Shown: positions 977-48,336, numbered from the stretch's first letter. The stretch is 64,000 nucleotides of DNA from Candidatus Magasanikiibacteriota bacterium (GCA_003510435.1 DOMK01000001.1:26604-90603), one strand, 5' to 3'. Notes: a model not told the origin generated them from the sequence alone. Translations and numbers: made by a program.

Positions 977-1440
977 ACACGAGACATAAAACACATATCA
1001 CATAACACGAGACAATTTATATGGCGAAAAATGACTACCATCAAAAATTGAGAGGATTGATTGTGGAGTACATCGTTTTAGGTTATAAGTCTTTGAAAAA
1101 ATTTCCTGATGACGAAAAGTATGGAATGATTTCACAATGTAAAAGAGCTCTGGTTTCAATCCTTTTAAATTATTTAGAAGGATTTGCTAGAACAAAGAAA
1201 AAAGTAATGGTAAATTTTTATGAAATTTCCTATGGCTCATTACAAGAAACTATAGGAATTTTTTATTTAGCAATATTTTTAGAATTTATTTCAAAAGAAG
1301 AATATAAAAAGTTGTTCGATATAAAAGAGGAAATAGCTAGAATGTTGTGGTCAACAACAAAAGGTGTAAAACAGGAAGATAGAGAATAAAAACCATTTGC
1401 CTTGTGTTGTGTGGTTTGTGGATTGTGTTATGTGATGTGT
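977..1440 (+). mobile_element. Four-helix-bundle gene cassette flanked by inverted 7-nt-period repeat arms
   Basis: Left arm acacgag-acataaa-acacata-tcacata-acacgag (about 977-1012); right arm ttgtgtt-gtgtggt-ttgtgga-ttgtgtt-atgtgat (about 1402-1440). Confidence 0.6.
1021..1389 (+). CDS. Four helix bundle protein (23S rRNA IVP/S23-like family)
   Basis: FPDDEKYGMISQCKRALVSILLNYLEGFAR...ISYGSLQE matches the family pattern FPxxExyxLxsQxrRAxxSixxNiaEG. Confidence 0.9.
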   Translation: MAKNDYHQKLRGLIVEYIVLGYKSLKKFPDDEKYGMISQCKRALVSILLNYLEGFARTKKKVMVNFYEISYGSLQETIGIFYLAIFLEFISKEEYKKLFDIKEEIARMLWSTTKGVKQEDRE

Positions 1441-1502
1441 CGCACAATATTTTAGTAGGGGAGAGGGAGCATGAAGAAGAGTAGGGGTGTTATTATAAAT
1501 TT

Positions 1503-1540
1503 AAAAAAGAGTTGGTTTCGTGCCAAACTCTTTTATTTTT
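1503..1540. terminator. Probable bidirectional intrinsic terminator
   Basis: aaaaaagagttgg-tttcgtg-ccaaactcttttattttt between convergent genes. Confidence 0.55.
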
Positions 1541-1734
1541 AAATTATTTTGAATTACTAATTACTAATTCACCTAATTTCTAATAAAAATTAAAATAAAA
1601 TTTTTAAATTAGTATTTTCTACATGCTGGAACGGTGAGAGTGTGATAAATGTATTAAATAGCATTAGTTATAAGCTTTTTTGGCTTAACTTAGTGATATG
1701 TTCATACCTGGGTTCTGAAAAGCCCTAGTATGTA

Positions 1735-1762
1735 GTGTCGTATAAGATATATTGTGCGACGC
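1735..1762. other. dif-like (Xer-type) 11-6-11 palindromic site
   Basis: GTGTCGTATAA-GATATA-TTGTGCGACGC, located where + and - strand genes converge. Confidence 0.5.
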
Positions 1763-1805
1763 CAGTACTATCTTGAGCTAAGGAGAAAAAGCTATTCTCC
1801 CCTGC

Positions 1806-2822
1806 CTATTGCCAATAAACTTTTCCCAAATAACGAAGATCAATATATTGTAAATTATTTCTTTTTACTTTATTTTTTAAAGTAAATTGTAGTTCTTCAA
1901 ATTGTTTATCAATTTCTTTATCAAGTTTCACTTTTATGTTCCAACCCTCTCTGGTTTTGATTACCCCGTCGCCTAGGTCATTTTCTAGGACTACATAGCC
2001 AAATGGTATGTCAGTTTTCTTGGTTAATAAATTGAACCAATTTATAATCCCAGCCACATTAACTTCATCCAAAACCCGGTCATTCAAATTTGTATCTTTA
2101 TTTCTAATATCATAAACAATTGGATAGTCTCCCATTTCATTCACTATATTTCTAACTGATGGTATATGGGCTAATTTTATTATTTCAGTTTTTGTAATAG
2201 TTTCTCCAGTTTCATTGGTTGAAGTCGTTGTTTTGGTTTGTGTTTGCCATTCGTCATCCCCGACTTTGCGAAGAATTTCTACAATGTGGCCGTCAGTACC
2301 AATGTAACTGTAATTTTTTCCATTATCATATATTAGAGTGGAAATTTTTTCTTCAATATTAATATTTAAAACATTAGGAAAAGTCTTACTAATCACAATT
2401 GACTCAATAGGAAATTTTTCTTTTAAAATATCTCTAACCTCATCTAGGTCAACTATAAAATAATTTTGTCCAGGTAGAATAAATAATCGTTTGTAATTAA
2501 TTACACCTAGTGTGGCATTTTTTATTTCTGTTTCAGAAATTCTTTGCAAGCCTGTGATATTTATAGTTTTTATATAAAAGAAATGACTGAAGACACTAAT
2601 AATTATCATGGATAAAACAGCTATTCCCAAAATTGATAATTCAATAATCTTTTTCCAATCCTTCTCCCCTTGTTCTTGCCAAAATGGATTTCTTTTTCTT
2701 TTATGCCAGTCAAAGTCTCGATGAACAGTATTTTTTGATGAAGAAAAAATAAAATCAGAAGCGATCTTCAATCCCCGACCCCATTTGCGTTTGTGTTTGT
2801 GAATATTGAAATTATTGTACAC
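1806..2822 (-). CDS. ftsQ: FtsQ/DivIB-like cell division protein (POTRA domain)
   Basis: One TM helix, IKTINITGL POTRA start, KTFPNVLNINIEEK, C-terminal YIDLRY. Confidence 0.75.
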   Translation of the reverse strand: MYNNFNIHKHKRKWGRGLKIASDFIFSSSKNTVHRDFDWHKRKRNPFWQEQGEKDWKKIIELSILGIAVLSMIIISVFSHFFYIKTINITGLQRISETEIKNATLGVINYKRLFILPGQNYFIVDLDEVRDILKEKFPIESIVISKTFPNVLNINIEEKISTLIYDNGKNYSYIGTDGHIVEILRKVGDDEWQTQTKTTTSTNETGETITKTEIIKLAHIPSVRNIVNEMGDYPIVYDIRNKDTNLNDRVLDEVNVAGIINWFNLLTKKTDIPFGYVVLENDLGDGVIKTREGWNIKVKLDKEIDKQFEELQFTLKNKVKRNNLQYIDLRYLGKVYWQ

Positions 2823-2833
2823 AAAAAAATATT

Positions 2834-3847
2834 TTATAATTCAGAATAAATTTTATTTATTTTTTCTATTATTGTTTTATCAACATCAAACCAGCCTTGT
2901 TTTAGACATTTAGCTTTGCATCTATAAGCTCTTTCGCCAGGTATAAGTATTTCTTGGTATTTTGCCATTTTTTTAGAATTTTTCAATTCTTTAATTAAGG
3001 CAGTATTTTCTCGTTTAAACTTATTAAGATTAACAAATTTACTTGGGTCAATGGCCAAATATAAAGCCCCACGGTATTTCCATTTTCCGTCTTTACTATT
3101 ATTTTTTAATCCAAAACCAGAATTTACTAGTGGCCCAGTTAAAATTTCAAATAATATTCCCAAAGCAAAGCCTTTGTAACCACCAAAAGGCAAAGCAGCA
3201 AAGGCATCATCTGGATTAAGGGTTACTTCCCCCTTTTTATTAATGAAAGCGTCGTTTGGTAATTTTTTATTTAGTAATTTTGCTAATTGTATTTCTCTAT
3301 AGGCTCTCACAGATGTGGCCATATCAGCTACAATTGGCAAGCCAGTCGTAGGGACAGCAAAACCAATAGGATCAGTACTAATAATTGGATCAATTCCTCC
3401 GTACGGAGCTACGAGTGGTCCTCCGCCATTGTGAAAAATAAGAGCGATTAAATCATGTTTAGCCAAAGCCTCAGCTTGACTACCCGGACGAAGAATTGCT
3501 CTGGTGTTGTAAGTGCCAACCATGGCAATGCCAAATTTTTTAGCTTTTTTTATTAAAATTTTTCTAGCCATTTCTGCCACCAATTGCCCAGCCTGTCCTT
3601 GGCCATCGATCAAAGTAAAAACTGCATCATCTTTTGTGATTTTAATTTTTTCGGTTTTAGAACTTTCTAATATTCTTTCGATATCATAAACTCCATTTAC
3701 AAAAGCGCTTAGGCCGTGGCTTTTTTTGTTTAGCAACTCCCCTTCTAGATAATCAGAAAAAATAATTTTAGTAGCTTTGCTTGATACGCCACTTTTTATT
3801 AAAATTTGTTCGCATTTTTTTCTAATTTCATTTATTTTTACCCGCAT
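2834..3847 (-). CDS. Ldh_2 family (malate/lactate/ureidoglycolate-type) oxidoreductase
   Basis: SHGL, DMATS, LPFGGYKGFALG, ILIPGE motifs. Confidence 0.85.
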   Translation of the reverse strand: MRVKINEIRKKCEQILIKSGVSSKATKIIFSDYLEGELLNKKSHGLSAFVNGVYDIERILESSKTEKIKITKDDAVFTLIDGQGQAGQLVAEMARKILIKKAKKFGIAMVGTYNTRAILRPGSQAEALAKHDLIALIFHNGGGPLVAPYGGIDPIISTDPIGFAVPTTGLPIVADMATSVRAYREIQLAKLLNKKLPNDAFINKKGEVTLNPDDAFAALPFGGYKGFALGILFEILTGPLVNSGFGLKNNSKDGKWKYRGALYLAIDPSKFVNLNKFKRENTALIKELKNSKKMAKYQEILIPGERAYRCKAKCLKQGWFDVDKTIIEKINKIYSEL

Positions 3848-3865
3848 ATTTTTAAAGTTTTTATG

Positions 3866-4279
3866 TTAAGTAATTTTACTTAAATCACCATAAACAACTA
3901 TTGGTTTTACAGCTTTAATTTCTGATTCACAATATGGTATATCTGGTATTGGATTTAGCATAAAAATTTTTTGGTTTAAAACATGAGCAAATCCTATCTC
4001 CATTAAAGTGTTGGCGCCAACATAATTTTTAATCCCGTTTTTATCTAAGTTTAAAACCAATACAGCATCAGCTCCTTGCATCATGTTCCAAAATTCACGA
4101 ATTGCATCAAGATTGTATTTTTGATAGAGTTTAATTTCTTCTATTTCCTCAGCTGATTTGTTGATCATTGTTTTGTGAAAATTTGTTAAAAAAGCTTCAT
4201 GACCTAGTTCAGAAAGTTTATCACGATACTCTACCATTTTATCAGTAAATTGCATGGAGCCTATTATCCCTATTTTCAT
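3866..4279 (-). CDS. Conserved hypothetical protein, nucleoside 2-deoxyribosyltransferase-like fold; start moved to ATG 4279
   Basis: IIGSM...ADAVLVLN...YVGANTLMEIGFA pattern. Confidence 0.55.
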   Translation of the reverse strand: MKIGIIGSMQFTDKMVEYRDKLSELGHEAFLTNFHKTMINKSAEEIEEIKLYQKYNLDAIREFWNMMQGADAVLVLNLDKNGIKNYVGANTLMEIGFAHVLNQKIFMLNPIPDIPYCESEIKAVKPIVVYGDLSKIT

Positions 4280-4293
4280 ATCAAATATAATTA

Positions 4294-5343
4294 TCAAAAT
4301 CCTCTCTTAATTTTTCTAAATGATTCAACTAACCAATTTACCCAATACTTTTTTGTAATTGGTAAATCTTGACAATGCAATAAATCTTTTTGATAACCAC
4401 CAAAGCCCTTTTTAAAATGAGTAATACCAGCAAATGGATGATTTTTTGGTGAGTTTTCTGGGGCAATTCCCCAAAAATTATAATATTTTATATTTCTTTT
4501 CCTGGCTTCTTTAATTGCTTCCCATTGCAATAAATATGAGCTTGGTAAGCGTTTATCAAGCCCCAGCGAAGCTCCATGGCGATAAGCCGCCATATTGCCG
4601 TAAAACATGACTATAGCAGAAGAATCTAATCTACCATCTGGTAAGTAAGCATTAAGAACTAAAGCTTCATTGTTTGATGAAAAAACAGAAAATTCATTGG
4701 TAATATATTTTTTGGAAAAACGATGAAAATTATGACGCTTTGCTGTCTCGTCATGAAGTTTATTAAAATTTTCCAGGTCAACCACTTGGTTTTTAATTTC
4801 AATGGTTACATTTTCTTTTTCACAGCGGTGAATTAGATTGCGGTGATTTTTGTTCATGTCAGCTAAGAGTTGATCTTCAGTCTTGTCTAATTCCAAAAGC
4901 CAAGTAGTTTCGGCCAAGACGTGCATTGGGGCTGGTCTAAAGCCTAATTTTTTAAATAGATTTTTATTATCCTCTGTCTCATCTAAAAATGGACTGATTC
5001 TAATAAAATCATATTTATTTTTTTGCGCAAAAGTTTTTAAATAATTAACAAAAATATCTAAAAATTTGTTTATCTCCCCAACTGGGCCATAAGGTAGATA
5101 AAGAAAATTACCTCTTTTGGCATGGGTACTAATAACTAATGAGCCACCAATTAATTTATTATCTTCATAAACACCAAAAATCCAGGATTGTTCAGACATT
5201 GATTCATAAAATTTTCCATAATGAAAAGATTGAACAAATAATGCCATGCCCCGCACCGAGTTTTGCTCTGGTGTTGGGGTATTCACTTGTGATAAAACAA
5301 AATTTTCCCAGTCACTTTTATTCTCAATGATCTTGACTTCCAT
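4294..5343 (-). CDS. FemABX family lipid II aminoacyltransferase
   Basis: LYLPYGPV, LLQWEAIKEA, YNFWGI, GITHFKKGFGG. Confidence 0.9.
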   Translation of the reverse strand: MEVKIIENKSDWENFVLSQVNTPTPEQNSVRGMALFVQSFHYGKFYESMSEQSWIFGVYEDNKLIGGSLVISTHAKRGNFLYLPYGPVGEINKFLDIFVNYLKTFAQKNKYDFIRISPFLDETEDNKNLFKKLGFRPAPMHVLAETTWLLELDKTEDQLLADMNKNHRNLIHRCEKENVTIEIKNQVVDLENFNKLHDETAKRHNFHRFSKKYITNEFSVFSSNNEALVLNAYLPDGRLDSSAIVMFYGNMAAYRHGASLGLDKRLPSSYLLQWEAIKEARKRNIKYYNFWGIAPENSPKNHPFAGITHFKKGFGGYQKDLLHCQDLPITKKYWVNWLVESFRKIKRGF

Positions 5344-5346
5344 AGT

Positions 5347-6585
5347 TTAGTATTGGTTTACTAAATTAATTATTCTTTCCGCATCTGTATTTGTAATATT
5401 TTTATCTGTGGGTAGATTGATAGACATAGCGGAAAGTTGTTCAGCTTTTGGACAATCCCCTGCTTTGTAGCCAGATTTGGTAATGTTAATATCAGCCGGC
5501 GCAATAGGACAAGAATACCAATCGCCCAAAATTATATTTTGATTTTTAGCTAACCTTCTCAATTTATGGGGATTTTCGACTAAAATTGTATAACGCAGCC
5601 AAACAGATTCATTAGTCCAGTCTGGTTTAGTAATTTTTGGATTATTAATTTTATCATTGTAAAGTTTGGCAATCTGTTGTCTGTGATTATTAAATTCAGA
5701 AATTTTTTCAGTTTGATTTAATAAAATTTTAGCCAGAGCATTAGGTAAGAGTGAAGGATAAAATAAAACTTGTTTGCCAATTTTTTCTTGCTTATAAATT
5801 ATCTTATTTGTCAGATTTAGTTTTTTTGCTATAGCCAATATCCACTTCCCTACTCCAATACTATACAATTTTTTACCAATAAAAAATATTGGATAATGGC
5901 ATAGATGTTGTTTTATTTTTAATAATCTAGAGTGTGGTAATCGTGTTTGATATTCTTTTATTTTACTAGCAGTTTTATCATCATTTGTAATCAATCCCCC
6001 GCCTCGGACACATGAAATGATTTTGTCGCTCCCAAAACTAAAAATTCCTATATCTCCAAAAGTGCCAAGTAATTTATTATTAAATTTTCCACCAAGAGAA
6101 TGGGCACAATCCTCAATAATTTTTAGATTATTTTCTTTGGCAATATTTAATAACTTTTCTAGATTGGCCGGTTTTCCAAAAGTGTGTTGAATAATTAAAA
6201 CTTTTGCCTTGTTAGTAATTTTTTTTTGCAAATCATTTGCATCCATATTGAAATCACTATCTATGTCTACATAAATTGGTTTAGCCCCTGTCCAAACAAC
6301 CGCATTACTTACTACCATACAAGTGTAGGCTTGAACTAAGACTTCATCATCTGGTTTTATATTTAATGATTTTAAAGCGTAAAATAAAGCTGTCCGACCA
6401 CTATCAAAAGCAAAAGCATATTTAGTAGAAAAATAATTTTTTAGCCAAGTTTCTATTTTTTCCGCACTGTCCCCTTTTTTCCAACTCCAGGGTTTAAACA
6501 AAAGACCGCAAGCGGTTTTTACATCTTGGTTGGTTAGATTGGGCGCAAAGCCAGTAAAAATAAATTTTTTAAATATGGAACTCAC
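5347..6585 (-). CDS. DegT/DnrJ/EryC1/StrS PLP-dependent aminotransferase
   Basis: SGRTAL, IIEDCAHSLG, FSFGSDK (PLP lysine). Confidence 0.9.
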   Translation of the reverse strand: MSSIFKKFIFTGFAPNLTNQDVKTACGLLFKPWSWKKGDSAEKIETWLKNYFSTKYAFAFDSGRTALFYALKSLNIKPDDEVLVQAYTCMVVSNAVVWTGAKPIYVDIDSDFNMDANDLQKKITNKAKVLIIQHTFGKPANLEKLLNIAKENNLKIIEDCAHSLGGKFNNKLLGTFGDIGIFSFGSDKIISCVRGGGLITNDDKTASKIKEYQTRLPHSRLLKIKQHLCHYPIFFIGKKLYSIGVGKWILAIAKKLNLTNKIIYKQEKIGKQVLFYPSLLPNALAKILLNQTEKISEFNNHRQQIAKLYNDKINNPKITKPDWTNESVWLRYTILVENPHKLRRLAKNQNIILGDWYSCPIAPADINITKSGYKAGDCPKAEQLSAMSINLPTDKNITNTDAERIINLVNQY

Positions 6586-6590
6586 AAAAT

Positions 6591-8198
6591 TTAGATTAAT
6601 TTGGAATTATCCCTAATTTCTTTCATAACTAATTCTGGAATGCGGTTTTCTAATAAAACTACTGAACCACTATTTTTAATATTTTTTATATAAGTTAGTA
6701 ATTTTACCGGTTCAAAAATTTCTTTAATTTCTAAACGATATTTTTGACTTAGAGACCCTTCAGTGAGAGGTTTGACAAAATCAGGCGTAATTATAACTAG
6801 CTCATCGGTACTATAAGAGATTTCTCCGCCAATTTTTTCGTGGATTTCATTACTTTTTTCTCCCAATTCTAACATGCCTCGAGTAATTACAATTCTCTTA
6901 CGTTCATTTTCAAAATTAGTAATATAATCTAAAGCCGCTTTAAAACCTTCGGGATTGGAATTATAGCTGTCATCAATAATATCACAATTGCCATATTTGA
7001 AAATATGAATAGTTTGCGGTAGATTTTTTATAACACCTTTAATCTCTTCCTCTGTCATTCCTAAATAACGAGCTACTAATGTGCATGGTAGAACATTCAT
7101 GGTATTGTGACTACCACGTAAGTTTGAGTCTATTTGAATTTCTACATTTTGACAAATCACGACGACTTTACCACCTTCAGTATTTTTTTCTATACTCTTT
7201 ACCAAGATAGTTGGTTTATGTTCTTCTTCTGTACCAAAGGTCATTACTTGACAATTTAATTCATTTAAAAATTCCCGACAATATGAATTGTCGCTATTAG
7301 TAATAGCTAAGCCATCTTTTGGTAGAGACCTGAATAATTCATATTTGGCCTTTTGGGTTTTTTTAATATTACCAAATAGCGCTATGTGCTGTTCATTGAT
7401 GGCAGTCAAGATACCAATTTTTGGTTTTACCATATCGCAAATCAATTTTATTTCTCCTTCGGCATAAGCACCCATTTCTACTATAAAAATATCTGTATTA
7501 GAAAAATTAGTTTTTAAAATAAATTTGGCTATGCCAATTTCGGTATTAACATGTTTAGGCGTACTTATAACATTAAATTTACTTTTTAAAATATGATCCA
7601 AAAAGATTTTTACTGTCGTTTTGCCATAACTGCCAGTAATACCGATTATTTTTAAATTTTTATATTGGCTAATTTTTTTTCTAGCGCGATTAATTAATAT
7701 TTTTTTTATTAAATCAGTCATTAGATTAAAAGCATAAACTATTAAACCTAAAATAAAAATTCTTGTCATCATTAATATTAATAAAGCATCCCAATCGTGT
7801 GATTTAAATAATAAACTTACTTCTAGTAAGATTGGGATTGAGATTAATAATAAAGATTTTAGAGTAATAGCTGGCTTAATAAATTTTTTTCTTTTAAATA
7901 TTTTATGTATATCATGGATGAAATTAATAGCCAAGATAGCCAAGATAACTATTTTTTGGATCTCAATGTTCAAAGGTAGAAATAAGGCGACCATTATTAA
8001 AAAGGCCCGATGGACAATGTTAAATTGAAAAGTAAAATGTTTACCTTGCTCAGTACTCAAAAAATCACGAAATCTATCCCAGCGATATTCTTTAAGTTGG
8101 AAAAAATACACAAAATAGCTATAATCCGAGATAGCTGAAAAAATCCAGAGAATAAAAATTATAGTATTAATATCAGAAAACATATTATTAATTAACAA
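6591..8198 (-). CDS. murF: UDP-N-acetylmuramoyl-tripeptide--D-Ala-D-Ala ligase with N-terminal membrane segments
   Basis: GITGSYGKTT, VEMGA, IDDSYNSNP, MLELG. Confidence 0.85.
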   Translation of the reverse strand: MLINNMFSDINTIIFILWIFSAISDYSYFVYFFQLKEYRWDRFRDFLSTEQGKHFTFQFNIVHRAFLIMVALFLPLNIEIQKIVILAILAINFIHDIHKIFKRKKFIKPAITLKSLLLISIPILLEVSLLFKSHDWDALLILMMTRIFILGLIVYAFNLMTDLIKKILINRARKKISQYKNLKIIGITGSYGKTTVKIFLDHILKSKFNVISTPKHVNTEIGIAKFILKTNFSNTDIFIVEMGAYAEGEIKLICDMVKPKIGILTAINEQHIALFGNIKKTQKAKYELFRSLPKDGLAITNSDNSYCREFLNELNCQVMTFGTEEEHKPTILVKSIEKNTEGGKVVVICQNVEIQIDSNLRGSHNTMNVLPCTLVARYLGMTEEEIKGVIKNLPQTIHIFKYGNCDIIDDSYNSNPEGFKAALDYITNFENERKRIVITRGMLELGEKSNEIHEKIGGEISYSTDELVIITPDFVKPLTEGSLSQKYRLEIKEIFEPVKLLTYIKNIKNSGSVVLLENRIPELVMKEIRDNSKLI

Positions 8199-9012
8199 AA
8201 TTTTTAATTATTTCTAATAATTTTTCTTTTGTCTGTAAGTGTAGTCCGTGTCTAGCATTTTTAATTATTTCTAATTTTGAATTCTTGATTAGTTTGTTCA
8301 ATTTATAAGCATCAGACACTGGCAAATAACCATCCATGGTACCCCAGACAATTAAAGTCGGTACTGTAATTTTATTAGCCTCTTCTCCTCTATCTTGACG
8401 GATAATGTTTTTAAAAATTTCCCGTTTGATTCCAGATGTGTCGTGATAATCTTTGGCACCAATGGCTTTATGAAAAATATCTTCGGCCCAGAGAGAGCCT
8501 TTTTCTATCCACGGAATTTTAAAAATTAATTTACCAAATTTTGCGCCCGCGTTAAAAATTACACGTCTGAAAGTTTTCTTTGGTCGAAACACAGCCGGCG
8601 CAGTTAAAATTAATTTATCAATCATATCTGGATATTTACTAGCAAAAACTGTGGCGACTTGACCGCCGAAACTGTGACCGAGTAATACCACGTCATTCTG
8701 AGCGGAGCGGAGCGGAGTCGAAGAATCCCCTTGTTTGTACACAAAAAAATGGGATCCTTCGACTTCACTGCGGCTCACAAGCTCACCTTCGTTTCGCTCA
8801 GGATGAAGTAGTGATTCGATTTTATTTTTTACAAATTCAACATAATCCTCTACTCCCCAGACTTTATCTGGACATGGTTCATCACCAAAGCAAGGTAATT
8901 CAATAATTTGAATATCAAAATCATTACTGGCTAATTCAGCAAATTCGTTCCAAGTCGCTTTGTTTCCTCCCCAACCGGGAAGGATGATTAATTTTGATTT
9001 TAAATTATTCAT
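8188..9012 (-). CDS. Alpha/beta hydrolase carrying an in-frame palindromic insertion
   Basis: LPGWG, GHSFGG nucleophile elbow, WGTMD, C-terminal His; about 39 extra codons at 8691-8807. Confidence 0.85.
   Translation of the reverse strand: MNNLKSKLIILPGWGGNKATWNEFAELASNDFDIQIIELPCFGDEPCPDKVWGVEDYVEFVKNKIESLLHPERNEGELVSRSEVEGSHFFVYKQGDSSTPLRSAQNDVVLLGHSFGGQVATVFASKYPDMIDKLILTAPAVFRPKKTFRRVIFNAGAKFGKLIFKIPWIEKGSLWAEDIFHKAIGAKDYHDTSGIKREIFKNIIRQDRGEEANKITVPTLIVWGTMDGYLPVSDAYKLNKLIKNSKLEIIKNARHGLHLQTKEKLLEIIKNFVN
8691..8807. repeat. REP-like doublet (GTCAT-terminated) inserted in frame
   Basis: cgtcattctgagcggagcggagcggagtcgaagaatcc...ggatccttcgac...gctcaggatgaag; left arm near-identical to 44339-44380. 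Confidence 0.85.
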
Positions 9013-9824
9013 TTTATAGAATTAATTTTTATAGAATTTTTTAATATGATAGATTTTAACTGACTGTAGATAATTAAATAAATTGTTGCTGCTCCAAACG
9101 ATAATAATGTCCCCCAGTATATTCCATATAAAGGATAGGCTATTGAAATTAATAAAGAATAAATAATGAGAGAAAACATCCCAATTGGTACATTTTTAAT
9201 AATTGTGTGAACATGTTCTTTTGAATATGTAAAATGAACAATTAAAATAAGTGGAAAAAGTGTAGTTGGAAATGCAGAAAATAAGCCGGCCCAGGTTGAA
9301 CCAACAAATTTTGGGATACTTGTAATAAAAAGTATAATCAAAGCTGAAAAGAAGGCACGCATAAAAAGTATTTTAAAATCTAATTTTACTTTATTTTCGA
9401 TTATGATGTTTTTGATATTTTTAAATAAATATATATATAGGAACGCAAAAACTATAGGAATAAGGATGGCGATGAATTTGTTTAATTGAATAAAGTGTAA
9501 TACATAAATAACCAAGAAATATCCTAAAATAGAAAATAACGACGATAACAATATACTGTATTTGTTAAAATATTTAGAAGAAACATAATAAAAATATACG
9601 AATGATAATGACGCTGTCATTCCTATCATATTAAAAATTGCGCTATCGGACGCGAATTGTGGACCTAATTCTAATCCAAAGAAAAAAAGTGTTATAGCAG
9701 ATCCTGTTGGATACCCAGATAAGATACCCGCAACTCTCGGACTTACATACTCAGCTAAAAGCGATAATCCTACCACAATAGAAATAGCAACGGTTAATTT
9801 AATTATAAACAACATTTCAAACAT
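9009..9824 (-). CDS. Multi-pass membrane protein, hypothetical
   Basis: Hydrophobic throughout, with an internal repeat (AGILSGYP / AGLFSAFP). Confidence 0.65.
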   Translation of the reverse strand: MFEMLFIIKLTVAISIVVGLSLLAEYVSPRVAGILSGYPTGSAITLFFFGLELGPQFASDSAIFNMIGMTASLSFVYFYYVSSKYFNKYSILLSSLFSILGYFLVIYVLHFIQLNKFIAILIPIVFAFLYIYLFKNIKNIIIENKVKLDFKILFMRAFFSALIILFITSIPKFVGSTWAGLFSAFPTTLFPLILIVHFTYSKEHVHTIIKNVPIGMFSLIIYSLLISIAYPLYGIYWGTLLSFGAATIYLIIYSQLKSIILKNSIKINSIK

Positions 9825-9858
9825 ATATTACTAAAATTTTGTAATAATTGTAAACAAT

Positions 9859-10377
9859 TTATTTATTAAATAGAGAAATAAATTTACCTTCATACAACAA
9901 TTTAGCCACTTCATCTGGTTGGAAATTTTTTCCATTCATGCAAACGCTTATACTTGGTTCCATATCCTGGACTTTTGCAATAGAATAACCGAGATTAAAA
10001 GGTGCGTCAGATGGAGTAAAACCGACTAATGGTATCATGGATCCCGTAAAAATAATTGTTTGATCTTTTCTTTTTAGATGTTTGTTTAAGTATCTAGCAG
10101 TGTCGGGCATTGTATAAGTTCCATGAGTAATAATTATTTTTTTGTAAGGACTTTTTTCAATGGTGTTTAGTATTTTTTTGAGATCTGCTTTGGTAAGATG
10201 TCGACTATCTTTCATACAGATTTCTGTGTATTCTGTCTTTTCATAAAGTTTTAAACTTTTAATAAAATCTGGCACCACTGAAGACCTATTAGTTATAGCC
10301 GTATCCTTTGTACCATCATAATGTGAATCAATTGTCCCCCCCGTAAGTATTATGTGAATTGTATTTTTATTGGGCAT
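9859..10377 (-). CDS. Asparaginase N-terminal-domain protein
   Basis: TGGTID, THGTYTM, TGSMIP, SDAPFNL. Confidence 0.85.
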   Translation of the reverse strand: MPNKNTIHIILTGGTIDSHYDGTKDTAITNRSSVVPDFIKSLKLYEKTEYTEICMKDSRHLTKADLKKILNTIEKSPYKKIIITHGTYTMPDTARYLNKHLKRKDQTIIFTGSMIPLVGFTPSDAPFNLGYSIAKVQDMEPSISVCMNGKNFQPDEVAKLLYEGKFISLFNK

Positions 10378-10383
10378 ATATTT

Positions 10384-11613
10384 TTATTTTAAGATTTTTT
10401 TATTTAAAAACTTCTGTAAAACCTCTGGCACCAAAACACTACCATCAGCTTGTTGAAATTGTTCTAAAATAGCTGGAATAAGACGACTAGTAGCTAAACC
10501 AGAAGCATTTAAAGTATGAACAAATTTATTACCGTTTTCAGTTTTATAGCGAATATTGCCACGACGAGCTTGATAATCTAGTGCGTTGGAAGCACTACTA
10601 ACTTCTTTATAAATTTCCATGCTTGGAATCCAAACTTCTACATCCATAGTTTTGGCCATCGCAGACGAAGCATCACCAGCAGCCAAGAGTGAGGTTTGAT
10701 AGTGCAAACCCAAACCCTCAACTAATTTTTCGACTGCGCCGACCATTTCAGCAAACGCTTCCCAGGATTTATCTTCAGTTGTAAATTGGAACATTTCAAT
10801 TTTATTAAACTGATGTCCACGCACCATTCCCCTTTCTTCTTTTCTATAGCTACCGGCTTCTCTTCTAAAACAAGTGGAATAAGCATAATATTTTATGGGC
10901 AAATCTTCGCCAGATAAAATTTCATCGCGATGATAATTACCCAGCATCATTTCTGAAGTCGCGTTTAGACAATTGCCGTCTTGAGTCCAATACAAATCAT
11001 CTCTAAATTTTGGTAAGTGCCCAGAAACATAGGCAGAATCTTCGTTTAATAAATACGGTGGAATAATAAAAGTATAGCCATTATTACGGTGGAATTCTAT
11101 AAAATAATTTAATAAAGCCCATTCTAATAAAGCGCCATCACCTTTGTAAATCCAAAAACCAGCTCCAGACATTTTGGCGGCACGTTCATAATCAATTAAT
11201 CCCAAAGAAGTGACTAGTTCCACATGATCTTTTGGAACAAAATCAAATTTTGGTTTGGCTCCAAAAGTTTTTACTACTTTATTATTTTCTTTACCACCAG
11301 CTGGTACATCATCAGCCGGAATATTTGGTAAAGCTGATAATTTTTCTTTTAAATTATCTTCTACTATTTTTAATTCATCATCAAATTTTTTAATCTCATC
11401 GCCCAAAGCTTTCATTTTGGTAATTTCTTCTGGACTAGGTTTACCCTTACTGCCTTTGTTTCTTTCAGCTTTTAATTCATCAACTTTGGTAATTATATTT
11501 TTTCTTTCATCGTCTATTTTTATAATTGTTTCCAAATTAACACTTTCCATTCTTTTGAGAAGTGCTTGTCTAACTTCGTTTGTTTTTTCTCTGATTAAAT
11601 TTATGTCTAACAT
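10384..11613 (-). CDS. serS: Serine--tRNA ligase
   Basis: MLDINLIR, FRREAGS, RGHQFNKIEMF, HTLNASGLA. Confidence 0.97.
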   Translation of the reverse strand: MLDINLIREKTNEVRQALLKRMESVNLETIIKIDDERKNIITKVDELKAERNKGSKGKPSPEEITKMKALGDEIKKFDDELKIVEDNLKEKLSALPNIPADDVPAGGKENNKVVKTFGAKPKFDFVPKDHVELVTSLGLIDYERAAKMSGAGFWIYKGDGALLEWALLNYFIEFHRNNGYTFIIPPYLLNEDSAYVSGHLPKFRDDLYWTQDGNCLNATSEMMLGNYHRDEILSGEDLPIKYYAYSTCFRREAGSYRKEERGMVRGHQFNKIEMFQFTTEDKSWEAFAEMVGAVEKLVEGLGLHYQTSLLAAGDASSAMAKTMDVEVWIPSMEIYKEVSSASNALDYQARRGNIRYKTENGNKFVHTLNASGLATSRLIPAILEQFQQADGSVLVPEVLQKFLNKKILK

Positions 11614-11656
11614 ATTTTTAGGTTTTAGTGATTAGGTTTTAGGTTATAATTATTTT

Positions 11657-11974
11657 CTAGTAAAGTTCTATTAAAACAGTTGTTGTAATTCTTTCTATGT
11701 CTGCAATTAATTCATTACTAAATTTTTTGTTGTTAGATGTCTGATGTTCTGTTTCTTTTTGTGCCCTAGCAATTAGTTCGCTAATTTCATTATCAAATTT
11801 TCCTTTTAATAAATTTGCTGAAGCCGTACTTAAAACTAATAACTTGGCAGAAATAGAATCTACAGCTTTTGTTCCAGAAGAAATCAATTCTGTTTTTAGA
11901 TTTTTTATTACCATGTCTTTTATTTGTTCTGGGGTTGGGCGTTGTGCTTCCACCCCTCTTTGAATTCTATTCAT
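11657..11974 (-). CDS. Hypothetical protein
   Basis: 105-aa ORF overlapping the cytidine deaminase stop; no family recognised. Confidence 0.5.
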   Translation of the reverse strand: MNRIQRGVEAQRPTPEQIKDMVIKNLKTELISSGTKAVDSISAKLLVLSTASANLLKGKFDNEISELIARAQKETEHQTSNNKKFSNELIADIERITTTVLIELY

Positions 11975-12425: not shown

Positions 12426-12432
12426 ACTCAAA

Positions 12433-13458: not shown

Positions 13459-13545
13459 ACACGGAAATAAGGAATTAAAGGATTATACGGATTTTTTATT
13501 ATCATATTTTTTCCGTGTGATCCTTTATCTCCGTATCTCAGTGTT
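13459..13545. repeat. Gene-less, internally deleted copy of the GxxExxY cassette
   Basis: Both arms present, plus the first codons (ATGATAATAAAAAA) of the GxxExxY gene. Confidence 0.8.
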
Positions 13546-36921: not shown

Positions 36922-37008
36922 ATATTTTATATTATGATTATTTATAATATTTGTTATCACCTATCATTTATTTTACAGAATTATTAATGATAAGTGATAA
37001 ATGATAAC

Positions 37009-37401
37009 CTAATTTAGTGAATTTTTAAGTAATTTTAGTTGTGTTTTTAAACTTCCATCCAAAATTTTATCTTCAGTTTTGACTGACACACCACCAAGTA
37101 AATTTGTATCAATAGTTTCAATCGCTTCTACTTGATTACCAAAAATTGATTTAATTTTTTCTAAAGTATTTTTATCTAATTTTCTAGCTGACTTAACTTC
37201 TATCTCTATTACCCCAGCCTGTTTTTTGGCGTATTTTTCAAATTCTTTAATAATATTGTCAGATTGTTTTAATTTTTGATTAGCAACTAAAATAGTGACA
37301 AACTTTTTTAAAGCATTGTTTAATTTTTCGCCTTTAAGTTCTTTTGTGCTATCATACAAGGCTTCGGCGTATTGTTTGTTGCTAATTTTTTTCTTTGACA
37401 T
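37009..37401 (-). CDS. atpH: ATP synthase delta (short form); start moved to 37401
   Basis: QYAEALY, VKSA, LLGG...LDGSLKTQL; operon position. Confidence 0.85.
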   Translation of the reverse strand: MSKKKISNKQYAEALYDSTKELKGEKLNNALKKFVTILVANQKLKQSDNIIKEFEKYAKKQAGVIEIEVKSARKLDKNTLEKIKSIFGNQVEAIETIDTNLLGGVSVKTEDKILDGSLKTQLKLLKNSLN

Positions 37402-37517
37402 AATCTCGAGCCAAAGCGAGAGATCCCTTTTCATTGGGTTTAACTTCGCTTTATTTTAAATATTGTTTAATGTGTTGGAAAGGGATTCCTCTCCGTCAGC
37501 TGACGGATCGGAATGAA
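37401..37517. repeat. REP-doublet/MITE-like element, copy B, with a nested 16-bp palindrome
   Basis: Matches copy A; loop replaced by TCCGTCAGCTGACGGA (37492-37507). Confidence 0.85.
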
Positions 37518-38100: not shown

Positions 38101-38170
38101 GTAATAGGGAGTTAGGGCTGGAGGCGGGTAAATATTTTTTCACATCTAGTCCTAATTCCCAACTACTATT
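38101..38170. repeat. TAGGAAT-family palindromic element, copy 2
   Basis: tagggagttagggctggaggcgg...catctagtcctaattccc. Confidence 0.7.
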
Positions 38171-38221
38171 TATTTTAAATAATCTTATTCATCCGGATCA
38201 AAATTGACCCGGAAAGTAAAA

Positions 38222-38488
<267 letters not shown>

Positions 38489-38520
38489 TTACCTCGCGGA
38501 ATGATAGCAATTAATTAATA

Positions 38521-38605
38521 ATAAAATTCAATATACATGCCTGCCTGCCGGTAGGCAGGGATCAAAATATAAATTGTATCGTGTTATGTGTATGTTGAAT
38601 TTTGT
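38521..38605. repeat. aatatac-family palindrome containing a 20-bp nested insertion
   Basis: CCTGCCTGCCGGTAGGCAGG at 38540-38559; uninterrupted version at 21841-21867 on the minus strand. Confidence 0.8.
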
Positions 38606-38607
38606 TA

Positions 38608-41345: not shown

Positions 41346-41489
41346 TTATATTTGTTCAATCATTTCATTTCTACTAGCCTGCCAATCTAACACGGAAAGA
41401 CAGAAAAATATATTTAGTATAATAAATAAAATACCAATAATTATTGCAATTATAATAAGTGAATGATAATTTTTTTGAGTTTTATTCAT
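41346..41489 (-). CDS. Putative 47-aa single-TM protein
   Basis: MNKTQKNYHSLIIIAIIIGILFIILNIFFCLSVLDWQASRNEMIEQI (manual translation). Confidence 0.4.
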   Translation of the reverse strand: MNKTQKNYHSLIIIAIIIGILFIILNIFFCLSVLDWQASRNEMIEQI

Positions 41490-41718
41490 AATAATCAACT
41501 TGACTAGCTTTACTTTTTAAAGCTTCTACTTTGTCTGAATAATTTTCAAAATATACTAATTTGTTTCTTTTGTATTTTTTAGACAAAGCATTATCATAAG
41601 TACCATCTTTATGTTGTTTACCTCTTTTTATTAAACTATCGGTATATCCCACTTATAAAACATTGTATATACTCGCCATAATATAAATATAAGAAGTTCT
41701 ACTCCTTAATAATTTCAT
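41482..41718 (-). pseudogene. GIY-YIG nuclease pseudogene
   Basis: MKLLRSRTSYIYIMASIYNVL*VGYTDSLIKRGKQHKDGTYDNALSKKYKRNKLVYFE...; TAA at 41653-41655; 3'-truncated paralog of 47930-48274. Confidence 0.85.
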
Positions 41719-41783
41719 ACAAAAGTTATGTATAAGAAAGACCCCTCCTCACTCTTTCAAGTTCGTTCGGGGTGGTGCAGTGA

Positions 41784-43991: not shown

Positions 43992-44732
43992 CTACTTACT
44001 GATTACTATTACAAACTCCCCTTTTTCTGAAATATTCATCGCCAATATTTCTTTAATTGTCCCGCGATAAATTGTTTCAAATTTTTTAGTTAATTCACGA
44101 CACACACACATTTGTCTGTCTTCTTCTAAAACTTCAGCCAATTCTCCTAAACATTTTTTTATTCTGTGATTTGATTCATAAAATGCGACTGTGTATTCTG
44201 CCTTCGCCACATCAGCAAAAAAAGTTTTACGACCTTTTTTGTGTGGCGGAAAACCCATGAATACAAATTTGTCGGTTGGAAAGCCTGAAATACTTAAAGC
44301 CGTTATTACTGCACTTGGTCCTGGAATTGGCTCTACTGTGTCATCCTGAGCGGAGCGGAGCGGAGTCGAAGGATCCCCTTCTTCAACAGGGGGATATTTC
44401 GACTTCGCCCTCCGGGCTTCGCTCAATATGACGTTTATGAGTTGGTTTCCTGGATCTGATATACCTGGCGTACCAGCATCAGTTACTAATGCCAAATTTT
44501 TACCTTGTTCCAACAATTCCTTGATCTCACGAACTTTCTTTTCTTCACTATGTTGATGATAAGAAATAGTTTTGGTTTTAATCTCAAAATGATTCAACAA
44601 ATTTAGTGTTACTCTAGTATCTTCACACAAAATAAAATCCACACTTTTTAATATTTTAAGTGCACGTAAAGTGATGTCGCCTAGATTACCAATTGGCGTG
44701 GCGACTATGTATAATTTACCTGTATTTTCCAT
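43992..44732 (-). CDS. rsmI: 16S rRNA C1402 2'-O-methyltransferase with an in-frame insertion
   Basis: VATPIGNLGDIT, CEDTR, DAGTPGISDPG, RELTKKFE. Confidence 0.95.
   Translation of the reverse strand: MENTGKLYIVATPIGNLGDITLRALKILKSVDFILCEDTRVTLNLLNHFEIKTKTISYHQHSEEKKVREIKELLEQGKNLALVTDAGTPGISDPGNQLINVILSEARRAKSKYPPVEEGDPSTPLRSAQDDTVEPIPGPSAVITALSISGFPTDKFVFMGFPPHKKGRKTFFADVAKAEYTVAFYESNHRIKKCLGELAEVLEEDRQMCVCRELTKKFETIYRGTIKEILAMNISEKGEFVIVISK
44339..44433. repeat. REP-like doublet inserted in frame in rsmI
   Basis: tgtcatcctgagcggagcggagcggagtcgaaggatcc...ttcgac...gctcaatatgacg. Confidence 0.85.
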
Positions 44733-45418: not shown

Positions 45419-45718
45419 TTATAATTTAGTAAGTTCATCAATGTTTAAATCTAGTTCTTTTGTATTTGCGTCAGAAAAATCAGTCGGATTCTCAATTTCT
45501 GTCATCACATTTTCTGGAGTAATATTATGAATAACTATATCATCTACTCGGATATTAGGTGATCTATGACAATGTCCAGTACAAGTACAAATATCTAAAC
45601 AGATTTTATCATTACATTCACCTTTTTGCAAACCAGTCTCCATTTCAATTTTGTGCAATATTGCATCCGAACCTTTGGCAGAACAAGTTATACCTTTGCA
45701 GATTTTTATTTGTTTCAT
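45419..45718 (-). CDS. Thioredoxin-like [2Fe-2S] ferredoxin domain protein; start moved to 45718
   Basis: CKGITC...CTGHC..SPNI. Confidence 0.75.
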   Translation of the reverse strand: MKQIKICKGITCSAKGSDAILHKIEMETGLQKGECNDKICLDICTCTGHCHRSPNIRVDDIVIHNITPENVMTEIENPTDFSDANTKELDLNIDELTKL

Positions 45719-45719
45719 A

Positions 45720-45834
45720 ATCATTCCGAGTGTAGCGAGGAATCCCTTTTCCTTGGGGTTAACATCGGTTTTATTTAATGCTTTTTTTAATGAATCAAAA
45801 AGGGATCCCTCACCCTTCGGGATTCGGGATGACG
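45720..45834. repeat. REP-doublet/MITE-like element, copy C (more diverged)
   Basis: tcattccgagtgtagcgaggaatccc...gggatccctcacccttcgggattcgggatgacg; spacer similar to copies A/B. Confidence 0.8.
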
Positions 45835-45837
45835 GTG

Positions 45838-46524
45838 TCAACCATAATACTTCTCCATATAAAATCTAATCAATTCTTCAATTTCTGGAATGGCTTCGGG
45901 ATCACCCACACCAACTTTTAATTTCTTTTGCACATCTTCCAAATTTTGCGCGCCTTCTAGTACCGCTTCTTCTATATCATGATCAGTAATATTTAGAACT
46001 TTATCAATAATTTTACTTCCAGCTGTCACAATTCTACCGTGTTGTCCAGTTTTACGAAAATAATCATTAACTGCGGCTTGTAAAGCTTTGTCACCCAAGA
46101 CTGAACAGTGTACTTTTCTATCTGGTAAGCCACCAAGCCGAGCTAAAATATCTTGTGGTTTTATTTTTAAAGCGTCTTCGAGTTTCATTCCACCCTTTTC
46201 AACGATCATTTCTGATAAAACCGAAGTGGAGGCAATGGCTGAACCACAACCAAAAGTGCGCCAGCGACAGTCCTTTATTTTTTCACTTTTTTCATCTACT
46301 AAAATCCACAGTACCATTTCATCACCACAAGCTGGCGAACCTACGCGTCCCATTCCATCATATTTAAACTTTTCTTCCTCGCCCTGTTTCATAAAATTTC
46401 GCGGATTAAAAAAATGATCCTTAACAATGTCAGAATACAACCAACCAGAACCATCATTACTGCGGATATCTACCGGTTTAGTTAAATTCTTAGTTTTGGT
46501 TACTTTTTTAATTATTTTTTTCAT
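45838..46524 (-). CDS. iscU: IscU/NifU-type Fe-S scaffold with a C-terminal BFD-like segment
   Basis: GSPACGD, FGCGSAIAS, KVHCS. Confidence 0.9.
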   Translation of the reverse strand: MKKIIKKVTKTKNLTKPVDIRSNDGSGWLYSDIVKDHFFNPRNFMKQGEEEKFKYDGMGRVGSPACGDEMVLWILVDEKSEKIKDCRWRTFGCGSAIASTSVLSEMIVEKGGMKLEDALKIKPQDILARLGGLPDRKVHCSVLGDKALQAAVNDYFRKTGQHGRIVTAGSKIIDKVLNITDHDIEEAVLEGAQNLEDVQKKLKVGVGDPEAIPEIEELIRFYMEKYYG

Positions 46525-46532
46525 AGACTATT

Positions 46533-46614
46533 GGATACTAAATACGAAATTTACAAAAATACGAACTGAGGTGCAATAATTTTTGTAATTTTGTACTTTT
46601 TGTATTTCGTATCC
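46533..46614. repeat. Short-period palindromic element (tacgaa-type)
   Basis: ggatactaaatacgaaatttacaaaaatacgaa / ttttgtaattttgtactttttgtatttcgtatcc. Confidence 0.65.
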
Positions 46615-46616
46615 TA

Positions 46617-47858
46617 TTATTTATACTTAGCATGTTTTTTATTTCCCATTTGTACAGGACTAATTTCCCTTAACTTTTCAACTATGCCCGGCAAATATTT
46701 CATGACATAATCAATATCAGCTTTGGTATTGCAATGCCCAAGAGTAAAACGCAAGCTACCATGAGCATATTCATAAGGTAAACCAAGCGCAGTGAGAACA
46801 TGTGATGGTTCTAGTGAGGTAGAAGTACAAGCTGAACCAGTGGAACAGCAAATGCCATAAGCATCTAAATATAATAACATAGCTTCACCTTCTACATCCA
46901 TAAAAGTGACATTCAAATTATTTGGCAGACGTGAGTTTTCATTTCCCAAAGAGGCGCCGTTCAATTTTATTTTATCAATTTTTTTACTAATTTGGTCGTA
47001 AAAATAATCACGCAATTCAACTAAACGCATGTTTTCATCTTGTCTATTTTCCTGAGCCAATTCTAACGCTTTGGTAAAGCCGACAATTCCAGCTAGATTC
47101 TCTGTACCACTGCGTAAATTCATTTCCTGACCACCACCATAGATAAGTGGCACGATATTCACTCCACGTCGCTTGTAGAGCATTCCTACGCCTTTGGGGC
47201 CATATATTTTGCTAGCATTGAGTGTCAATAGATCCACATGGAGCTTTTCCACGTCCAATTCTAAAACTCCGCCAGCTTGGCAAGCATCTGTATGAAAAAA
47301 TGGATATATAGAATTATTTTCTTTGCGATATTTTAAAATTTCTCTTCCAATATCAGCGATTGGTTCTACCGTACCAATTTCATTATTGGCATACATAATA
47401 GAAATCAAAATTGTGTCAGGACGAATCTCAGCTCGAACTTTTTTTGGTGAAATAAAACCCCGTGAATCTGGTTCTAAATATGTCACAACAAAACTTTCTT
47501 TTTCTAAGTGTTCAATTGGATTTAAAACCGCATGATGTTCAATCTTCGTGGTAATAATATGTTTACCAAAATTTGCGTGTTTTCTAGTCACACCGAATAT
47601 TGCCAAATTATCTGACTCACTACCACCACCAGTAAAAATAATATTGTCTGGTAAAGCATGAATAATCTCTGCGACTTTTCTGTGACAATCATTCAGTTCG
47701 CCATTGGCAACCCGACCTGCTTCATAAAGACTACTCGGGTTACCAAAAATCTTACCATAATATGGCTTCATGACTTTTTCTACTCGTTCATCAACGTAAG
47801 TCGTAGCCGCGTGGTCTAGATAAACAAATTTTTTGGTTTTTGGTTTTGGGGGGAACAT
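46617..47858 (-). CDS. iscS: Cysteine desulfurase; start moved to 47858
   Basis: YLDHAATT, EHHAV, NNEIG, HTDACQ, SKIYGPKG, STGSACTS. Confidence 0.93.
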   Translation of the reverse strand: MFPPKPKTKKFVYLDHAATTYVDERVEKVMKPYYGKIFGNPSSLYEAGRVANGELNDCHRKVAEIIHALPDNIIFTGGGSESDNLAIFGVTRKHANFGKHIITTKIEHHAVLNPIEHLEKESFVVTYLEPDSRGFISPKKVRAEIRPDTILISIMYANNEIGTVEPIADIGREILKYRKENNSIYPFFHTDACQAGGVLELDVEKLHVDLLTLNASKIYGPKGVGMLYKRRGVNIVPLIYGGGQEMNLRSGTENLAGIVGFTKALELAQENRQDENMRLVELRDYFYDQISKKIDKIKLNGASLGNENSRLPNNLNVTFMDVEGEAMLLYLDAYGICCSTGSACTSTSLEPSHVLTALGLPYEYAHGSLRFTLGHCNTKADIDYVMKYLPGIVEKLREISPVQMGNKKHAKYK

Positions 47859-47861
47859 AGT

Positions 47862-48336
47862 ATAAATTAATCTCGAACGAAAAACAGAAAGCGAAGCGAA
47901 CTGTTTTGAGGAGAGATCTTTCTTACCTCTTAATTCTCTACGCGAGTAAAACCCTGCATAATATAAAAATTTTTCTTTACTTGTAAATATAAATCTATCC
48001 AATCTGGATTATCTTTTTCAATTAATTTGATCTTCTTCTCTTTTCTATATTTTTTAATTTGACTTTCTCTTTTTAGAGATTCTTCTTTTGTATAATAACT
48101 TTCAAAATAGACTAACTTATTAGTTTTATATTTTTTAGAAAAAGCATTATCGTATGTACCTGTTTTGTGTTGTCTACCTCTTTTTATAAGACAATCTGTA
48201 TAACCTACATACAATACTTTCGTTATACTTGCCATTATATAGACGTAGTAATTTCTCCTCCTTAAATTGTTCATAGTGAGATTAGTTTTAAGAAAGATCT
48301 CTCGTCGCCCTTCGGGCTCACTCGAGATTAATTTAT
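47862..48336 (-). mobile_element. GIY-YIG cassette bounded by nested inverted repeats
   Basis: 15-bp IR ataaattaatctcga/tcgagattaatttat and inner 15-bp IR gagagatctttctta/taagaaagatctctc. Confidence 0.7.
47930..48274 (-). CDS. GIY-YIG nuclease family protein
   Basis: YYVYIMAS..VLYVGYT..L.KR..QHK..LVYFE..RESQIK..LIEKDNPDW.DL. Confidence 0.92.
   Translation of the reverse strand: MNNLRRRNYYVYIMASITKVLYVGYTDCLIKRGRQHKTGTYDNAFSKKYKTNKLVYFESYYTKEESLKRESQIKKYRKEKKIKLIEKDNPDWIDLYLQVKKNFYIMQGFTRVEN

Follow-up and report, generated by a model that had tools for sequence, protein, structure and literature searches.

Here, we propose that a 64,000-nucleotide stretch of Candidatus Magasanikiibacteriota DNA (the window; positions 26604-90603 of contig C17 in the genome G000) carries members of unrelated one-gene foldback families, in which a small gene is framed by inverted arms that travel with it and that are gained, lost, and swapped at gene junctions. 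We give this reading, in which the families are likely selfish, their small proteins are predicted to bind their own single-stranded arm (and, for the nuclease folds, to cut it), and host repair does the copying, a probability of about 0.6. Genes and arms form cognate units that have moved over evolutionary time, have been deleted in place to gene-less forms, share slots, and lie in sense orientation. Three such cassettes, with a four-helix-bundle, a GxxExxY, and a GIY-YIG gene, stand among the window's housekeeping operons (lysS, mreB, atp, and Fe-S assembly). An original prediction, made from the window alone, had named these three unrelated genes as parallel families, each with its own arm signature and gene-less derivatives; the families are where it placed them, all three sets of inverted arms exceed shuffled sequences (P 0.0005-0.002), and cognate gene-less sets are found throughout the genome.

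G000 is a 1.21-Mb genome in 21 contigs (95% complete) from groundwater metagenomes. An independent assembly of a possible source sample reproduced window positions 1-16997 without a difference, so this part is not an artefact of a single assembly program, and two samples of one study, compared at contig level, were identical wherever covered. The main comparison is with G001, of the same genus, for which 835 kb of about 1.4 Mb and 438 orthologues were compared, with four-fold sites 59% alike.

Cassettes and their gene-less relatives

Coordinates are window positions, on the minus strand unless otherwise stated. The four-helix-bundle gene (1021-1389, plus strand; PF05635/TIGR02436, a relative of PDB 2GSC) lies between a left arm of 7-nt period that begins at the stop codon of an M23 peptidase gene (973-1020, plus strand) and a right arm (1390-1450, plus strand); its arms exceed shuffles at P 0.002, and G001 lacks the cassette at the same M23 junction. 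The GxxExxY gene (13989-14393; PF13366/TIGR04256, PD-(D/E)XK fold) has an upstream arm starting at the lysS stop (14394-14436) and a downstream arm ending at the cytidylyltransferase start (13940-13990), with P 0.0015. Between rrf2 and iscS lies a single-domain, Ssn-like GIY-YIG gene of 114 amino acids (47930-48274; PF01541), with an upstream hairpin arm that starts at the rrf2 stop (48275-48333) and a downstream one (47865-47929), with P 0.0005. Of the arm periods that had been claimed, 7 nt is clear at 1021 and at the arm-only site 34294, and the GxxExxY period is a loose 8-10 nt; the GIY-YIG arms are not periodic.

The pairing of genes with arms is general. A screen of 1052 G000 genes for complementarity between the flank upstream and the flank downstream put four-helix or GxxExxY genes in 12 of its 13 highest ranks; the window four-helix arms scored 27, just below the 99th percentile of mismatched pairs (28). 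Own arms are present in 55 of 69 four-helix loci (period 7 in 32 and period 8 in 16 of those 55) and in 31 of 38 GxxExxY loci (period 8-10 in 24 of the 31), the latter against about 2.5% of mismatched GxxExxY pairs. Almost each cassette gene has its own word, and stems run to about 31-35 nt, or four to five units. The cassette genes, the window GxxExxY gene included, are under purifying selection: the second positions of their codons agree at 92-98% where four-fold sites agree at 35-79%. G000 has 11 four-helix genes, all flanked by protein genes, 12 GxxExxY matches, three of them within long reading frames (two of which read as RecG- and RecJ-like), and 11 GIY-YIG matches (one UvrC-like, several unarmed or beside tRNAs); 6 of 28 GIY-YIG copies are broken. 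Two in-frame GxxExxY cassettes (C14:22606-22950 and C4:9762-10103) lie in long helicase-like and exonuclease-like genes. A second group of small GIY-YIG genes (C17:117-332, C10:89254, C8:19802, and C12:38968) has tRNA genes or partial tRNA repeats on one or both sides.

A library of arms, compared with 658 G000 gaps of 35-450 nt, found gene-less arms in about 180, of which about 13 are expected to be false and for which family labels are approximate (one GxxExxY-type family had been labelled four-helix). Cognate gene-less sets number 26 against 0.4 in shuffles, 20 against 2.8, 14 against 1.0, 8 against 1.5, and 7 against 1.35, and some arm words have no gene-less family above shuffles. Five of the six arm-only sites named by the original prediction (34294, 13459, 32761, 37401, and 45720) exceed shuffles (P 0.0005-0.0075); the sixth is a solo GxxExxY-type arm (32298-32333) after the atpC stop, adjoining a terminator-like hairpin and without an inverted partner (P 0.45). 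The sites 32761, 37401, and 45720 are gene-less GIY-YIG-type elements as claimed, but their arms are closer to those of another G000 cassette, C8:28177, whose words match 26 gaps (0.4 in shuffles), than to those of the window gene at 47930, whose words match 1 (2.2 in shuffles).

In both G000 and G001 all seven junctions of the atp operon carry arms, for the most part of different words. In the window, atpD/atpC is filled by a gene-less GIY-YIG-type element (32761-32868; 89% alike in G001 and found also in G011), and a second at atpF/atpH (37401-37495) is 95% alike to it over 81 nt. A gene-less copy of the 1021-type arms lies at atpG/atpD (34288-34366), where G001 has a GxxExxY-type element, and a gene-less 9-nt-period element whose arms resemble those of four-helix genes in G020, G013, and G014 lies at atpA/atpG (35325-35397), where G001 has a GIY-YIG-type element. 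The 7-nt-period gene-less element at atpH/atpA (36948-37006) has the arms of the four-helix gene C20:12405; the arms of that at atpE/atpF (38105-38175), of a further periodic family that recurs near 24855, 42345, and 48831, resemble those of C12:2093. After atpB follows a 7-nt-period element (38525-38606) with a short G+C-rich palindrome inside one arm (38541-38560), and similar palindromes are nested in the right arm of C2:126199 and at the G001 rrf2/iscS junction. Separately, a short structured stretch before atpE in the atpB/atpE gap (38400-38500) is kept in many relatives independently of the elements; it has no Rfam match and may be an RNA regulator.

Outside this operon, gene-less 7-nt-period elements of a sister four-helix subfamily, with cognate gene C8:461-832, lie at 17238-17335 and 21780-21870 (neither assigned to a strand), and gene-less GxxExxY-type elements at 46524-46623 (arms of the gene C5:2777) and 49521-49623 (a junction of 3 nt in G001). 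The element at 45717-45837, of GIY-YIG type, follows a nifU-region gene. Two further GIY-YIG-type hairpin elements are in frame inside genes, for an alpha/beta hydrolase (8692-8816) and for a member of the tetrapyrrole-methylase family (44300-44420; absent in G001). A decayed GIY-YIG cassette with 2 internal stops (41400-41780) is 64% alike to that at 47930 and absent in G001. Candidate remnants of open reading frames in gaps number 45 of 667 against 8 in shuffles, most being arm matches or weak; the clear ones are C15:73216 and C14:38069.

The claim that arms nearly always touch a start or stop codon is overstated for the genome as a whole, since 63% of the 180 come within 10 nt of where a gene ends or begins, against 49% expected inside their own gaps. 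Stems start a median 5 nt past the stop and end 19 nt ahead of the start (n=128). Because in-frame inserts occur in variable protein loops and contact with stop codons exceeds chance only moderately, the junction targeting that had been proposed may be mostly survival in neutral gaps. The link between arms and conservation of the flanking genes is weak (P 0.067). Orientation is strict: 17 of 17 cassettes between co-oriented genes are in sense, and the four at operon starts follow the downstream gene; either the cassettes depend on transcription by the host, or the elements insert in a strand-specific way.

One junction in four states and the swapping of families

The cytidylyltransferase/Ham1 junction, which in the window holds a gene-less GxxExxY-type element retaining the first codons of the gene (13459-13545), is found in four states: an empty ATGA overlap, a full cassette, the gene-less form, and another family. 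The ATGA stop-start overlap is seen in 6 of 10 further genomes with these genes adjacent; a metagenome contig (L233) has a complete GxxExxY cassette there, with a protein 83% identical to the window's; and G001 has a DUF559-type element. Aligned with L233, the window sequence retains both arms and the first codons and has lost about 370 nt of gene between short A-rich repeats. Gene-less copies can thus arise in place by loop deletion, as expected of hairpin-promoted deletion, which is established for inverted repeats. The sequence at 13459 is compatible with a 2-4-nt duplication of the overlap bases, its arm ends being ambiguous. The full window copy stands one junction upstream, where L233 has a remnant arm and most relatives less than 30 nt, and the simplest reading is a local hop or duplication. 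One GxxExxY pair is 91% identical and yet lies at different junctions.

The idea that both arms at lysS/cytidylyltransferase had undergone a "concerted change" between G000 and G001 was rejected, since a related cassette taking over the site (74% identical; L233 81%) would look the same. Directly upstream of the GxxExxY cassette, lysS has a C-terminal HD-like extension (14433-15065), which G001 does not have. In the atp operon of G024 (L029), near-identical GxxExxY-type arms occur both head-out and inside-out at neighbouring junctions.

Empty and filled sites were likewise seen at other orthologous junctions, as the original prediction had expected. The rrf2/iscS junction is at most 17 nt in all 18 genomes fetched (of 22 others with an Rrf2 match), and in G001 it holds another gene with other arms. 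Among 209 simple co-oriented orthologous junctions of G000 and G001, 50 are armed in both, 46 in one, and 113 in neither (odds ratio 10.9, and 9.5 among the 139 with both gaps above 30 nt); of the 50 doubly armed, 33 are less than 60% identical and 26 no more alike than unrelated pairs. We examined 18 G001 cassettes, 12 of them syntenic on both sides. Only 2 are shared with G000; of the other 10, 5 face gene-less arms of another word, 3 another gene, and 1 an empty site, with 1 unresolved. Different families replace one another at the same junction in sister species.

At a few junctions these species agree at 97-99% in tracts of 200-270 nt that reach 30-90 nt into both genes. Near-identical tracts lie over an element in 5 of 33 cases against 0.77 expected (P 0.0015), all gene-less and in small numbers; these five have arms at their centre.

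Coupling of genes and arms across genomes

Arm models drawn solely from copies in G000 and G001 (models R2 and R3 leave out two junk and five inside-out rows) were searched in 39 other genomes, in which kin are not independent. GxxExxY-type arms were found in 8 of 8 gene-positive against 3 of 31 gene-negative genomes and four-helix-type arms in 10 of 19 against 1 of 20, which bears out the co-occurrence that had been predicted; GIY-YIG-type arms (2 or more hits) were found in 7 of 13 genomes with a strong homologue against 4 of 26. G021 fits this pattern: it has neither a GxxExxY gene nor a GxxExxY-type arm, beside 7 four-helix genes and 24 GIY-type hits. G011 has two four-helix genes, one with the modelled arms, and 60 four-helix-type hits, both strands counted. 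Arms are common to 19 of 31 pairs of four-helix proteins more than 60% identical and to about 1% of pairs below 50%, and a whole-matrix test of protein against arm is significant for GxxExxY (P 0.001).

Several results weigh against our proposal. The same matrix test is not significant for the four-helix family (rho 0.048, P 0.13) and coupling disappears below 50% protein identity, so that co-inheritance alone could produce it. For GIY-YIG the coupling is weak, with 31 hits in G011 beside only a broken, distant homologue; G009 (89% complete) has 21 GxxExxY-type hits without the gene, and G013 has 12 four-helix genes and zero hits to the window-type model. All families concentrate in the same element-rich genomes, and the G000 paralogues are spread over their trees with no recent burst. 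The other 28 of the 33 near-identical tracts lie off elements, in rRNA, tRNA, ribosomal-protein, promoter, or coding DNA; recombination between species thus occurs in the background, and the enrichment of tracts over elements is suggestive only. The nearest relatives are too distant (four-fold sites 59% alike) for a clean target duplication or an exact end to be assigned. Close relatives of the window four-helix and GIY-YIG proteins were not found in GTDB contigs, 400 genomes of the class, or viral contigs (best 40-55%). Finally, G000 has three Y1 genes, and the absence of transposases holds for the families searched: as had been claimed, no classical transposase with the same ends was seen, and rve (PF00665), DDE_Tnp_1 (PF01609), IS110 (PF02371), and IS1595 (PF12762) were not found in this 95% complete genome, the search not extending to IS256, IS5-like, and other families.

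Proposed mechanism and alternatives

How might such elements move? In our reading, the small proteins themselves would be the movers. By analogy with SsnA (PMC11893778), each would recognise its own arm in single-stranded DNA; the GIY-YIG and GxxExxY nuclease folds would nick it, whereas the four-helix protein, for which no active site is known, would depend on a nuclease supplied by the host or a partner. Host repair would then copy the element into new sites. Gene-less copies, which can arise by loop deletion, would afterwards be copied in trans by the cognate protein. A junction once opened may become neutral ground and a hot spot, at which later elements replace earlier ones, and elements may pass between species as recombination tracts of 200-250 nt in natural transformation, ComEC being present.

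The predicted GxxExxY model (pLDDT 92) has a PD-(D/E)XK fold with invariant E30, D69, E79, and K81 (an intact D..ExK), and its best matches are Cas4 SSO0001 (E 7e-6; Z 8.3, rmsd 5.8 over 109) and BpuSI (Z 8.3, rmsd 2.8 over 98); judged from this model, the protein is a nuclease fold nearest Cas4. Residues Y12, Y22, and E70 of the window GIY-YIG protein correspond by spacing only to Y6, Y17, and E64 of SsnA. The four-helix protein matches the pentameric XCC0516, described as a homologue of Avd (PMC10053308); the five subunits beside four to five repeat units are a coincidence worth testing, nothing more.

The alternative that survives best, though we consider it unlikely, is that the arms act in RNA, folding the messenger as rRNA intervening sequences (IVS) do and so exposing the insert to removal or cutting by RNase III, with gene-less copies serving as host signals for mRNA processing or stability. 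The layout, heptamer repeats included, is that described for the IVS in Coxiella 23S rRNA, an insert excised by RNase III (PMC4990558), and the described Avd homologue acts on RNA (PMC10053308). The strict sense orientation, stems that begin soon after stop codons, and the 7 of 7 atp junctions armed with mostly different words in both species, as if any stem served, also fit. RNA stems should, however, tolerate G-U pairs: mismatches on the sense strand of the arm stems, counted as G-T/A-C in five sets, are 69/65, 43/30, 17/19, 63/62, and 23/29, against 17/1 in tRNA acceptor stems, and the lack of a G-T excess argues for DNA rather than RNA hairpins. Moreover, many relatives have 1-17 nt at these junctions, arm words follow their cognate genes, although a signal in host RNA could do without such a match, and SsnA is described as not binding RNA (PMC11893778). 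Four-helix genes are also unlinked to reverse transcriptase across 41 genomes (present in 11 of 21 four-helix-positive and 10 of 20 negative genomes).

Next in plausibility, and to us improbable, is domestication, in which the proteins and their sites regulate host DNA uptake or operon expression, as SsnA does in Neisseria, and spread is a side effect. SsnA is reported to modulate the integration of transforming DNA (PMC11893778), ComEC is present, the cassette genes are under purifying selection, and a few gene-less copies are 89-99% alike between species. Against a host function, the searches did not find four-helix genes in 20 of 41 relatives or GxxExxY genes in 31 of 41, sister species retain only 2 of 12 cassettes, broken copies exist (6 of the 28 GIY-YIG copies, and window 41400), and the 97-99% copies lie in short tracts spanning coding flanks, which fits recent transfer.

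We rate third, and doubt, the idea that hairpins of every kind are moved by one shared enzyme (host repair, XerC/D-like recombinases, or a RAYT-like Y1 protein), with the small genes as passengers that lie in hairpin loops by chance. G000 does encode, besides ComEC and 1 DUF559 gene, three Y1 proteins and two tyrosine recombinases, all families occupy the same junction slots, and the four-helix protein has no known catalytic site. The RAYT-like Y1 genes (C9:6220-6950 and C8:38960-39340), however, have their own palindromic ends with three gene-less copies, and these ends give background scores (15-23) against the other arm types. Arm-enclosed genes are almost solely these few nucleic-acid-binding families. 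Capture of passenger genes at armed slots, tried as a candidate, was rejected: 15 of 25 lineage-specific genes lie at such slots (one of the 15 actually a GIY-YIG cassette), which is not above the baseline of 100 of 213.

That the hairpins formed in place as immobile products of slippage or template switching in A+T-rich gaps, as their short repeats and the reported excess of inverted repeats between genes, perfected by template switching (PMC4060949), might suggest, is very improbable and largely refuted by the near-identical copies with common loops at unrelated junctions (95% over 81 nt), the match of arms to cognate genes in the co-occurrence tables, and the full and gene-less forms at one site.

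In light of our preferred reading, mobile one-gene foldback families, a wider generalisation can be considered, tentatively and with more doubt than belief. Any protein of about 120 residues able to recognise a recurring word in single-stranded DNA (GIY-YIG, PD-(D/E)XK, Vsr-like DUF559, or a non-catalytic four-helix ring) might become autonomous once framed by inverted arrays of that word; such a transposase-free class would compete for operon junctions, its families overwriting each other there, and would home between species via transformation in 200-nt tracts.

If our proposal is true, it would assign a role to TIGR02436 and TIGR04256, two very large families of unknown function, extend the logic of REP/RAYT and Ssn to unrelated folds, and explain why some reduced genomes give a quarter of their gene gaps to hairpins. 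The predicted recognition word beside each gene would supply dozens of natural protein-word pairs, which might be put to use as small nucleases or single-strand binders with sequence specificity. Slot swapping and the junction in four states make mobility directly testable.

Other features

A DUF559 gene in G000 (C5:7780-8400) is framed by G+C-rich hairpin repeats, with gene-less copies at G001 and G005 junctions, and is a fourth family with the same layout. The original prediction had missed this gene and the RAYT-like genes with their own arms, as well as the replacement of families and the published pairing of GIY-YIG genes with hairpins. The window also has a tandem trio of tiny acidic Cys-rich reading frames (29867-30410), about 11 perfect tandem copies of a 9-nt unit where a methyltransferase gene starts (62464-62568), and a G+C-rich orphan reading frame in this A+T-rich genome, absent from the G001 alignment (28261-29200).

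Comparison with known systems

Most likely, the GIY-YIG type is a member of the published Ssn family of GIY-YIG single-stranded-DNA nucleases, which cut beside their own NTS/SRM hairpin (Chenal et al. 2025, PMC11893778); it behaves like such an Ssn/SRM system and probably is one. That paper describes a small single-domain GIY-YIG gene amid hairpin repeats, with many gene-less repeats and a layout that its authors call insertion sequence (IS)-like, and the window protein agrees in length (114 aa, where Ssn proteins have less than 150), in matching PF01541 only, and in having hairpins on both sides. An NCBIfam search with it gave no match, and relatives 49-50% identical to it (L150, L126, and L125) have NTS-like arms. 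The window differs in that its arms, judged by eye, lack the usual head of the published motif, and in that its gene-less form consists of two hairpins with a 40-60 nt loop, filling junctions or in frame; the main text of the paper does not contain the word "Patescibacteria" and offers mobility only as a hypothesis.

The four-helix type resembles the rRNA IVS of Coxiella (PMC4990558) and the rRNA insertions of candidate phyla radiation bacteria (PMC11270868), described as PF05635 genes in terminal inverted repeats with heptamers and as occurring in ORF-less and ORF-bearing forms at the same sites. In contrast, the 11 G000 copies lie between protein genes, with their own 7-9-nt words and gene-less families, show no RNA-pairing bias, and are conserved rather than decaying; the window itself has no Rfam match that would place the four-helix type in rRNA. 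Nor does it fit the Avd proteins of diversity-generating retroelements, which are encoded with a reverse transcriptase, PF00078 not having been found in G000.

REP/REPIN-RAYT systems also have a single gene between its own palindromes, many gene-less intergenic copies, and a lineage-patchy distribution, but the three genes here are PF05635, PF13366, and PF01541 rather than HUH (Y1) enzymes, two of the arm types are periodic arrays rather than single hairpins, and G000 has a separate RAYT-like family. MITEs with their DDE transposases and Rickettsia palindromic elements are similar in being internal-deletion derivatives of a gene-bearing element and in inserting into proteins in frame; here, the four transposase families searched were not found in G000 and no target duplication was fixed. 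Free-standing homing endonucleases share the small nuclease gene at junctions and the near-identical tracts 30-90 nt into the flanks, but have a fixed home site, whereas one clade here occupies many unrelated junctions, with inverted arms and gene-less copies integral to the element.

In the literature searched, to which subscription papers and the Ssn supplements did not belong, we found no description of GxxExxY arms or slot swapping, of four-helix genes with inverted repeats outside rRNA, of such repeats in Patescibacteria, or of the DUF559 arrangement. Thus, what this locus adds to the systems already described is three families tested side by side, a junction seen in four states, and the swapping of one family for another.

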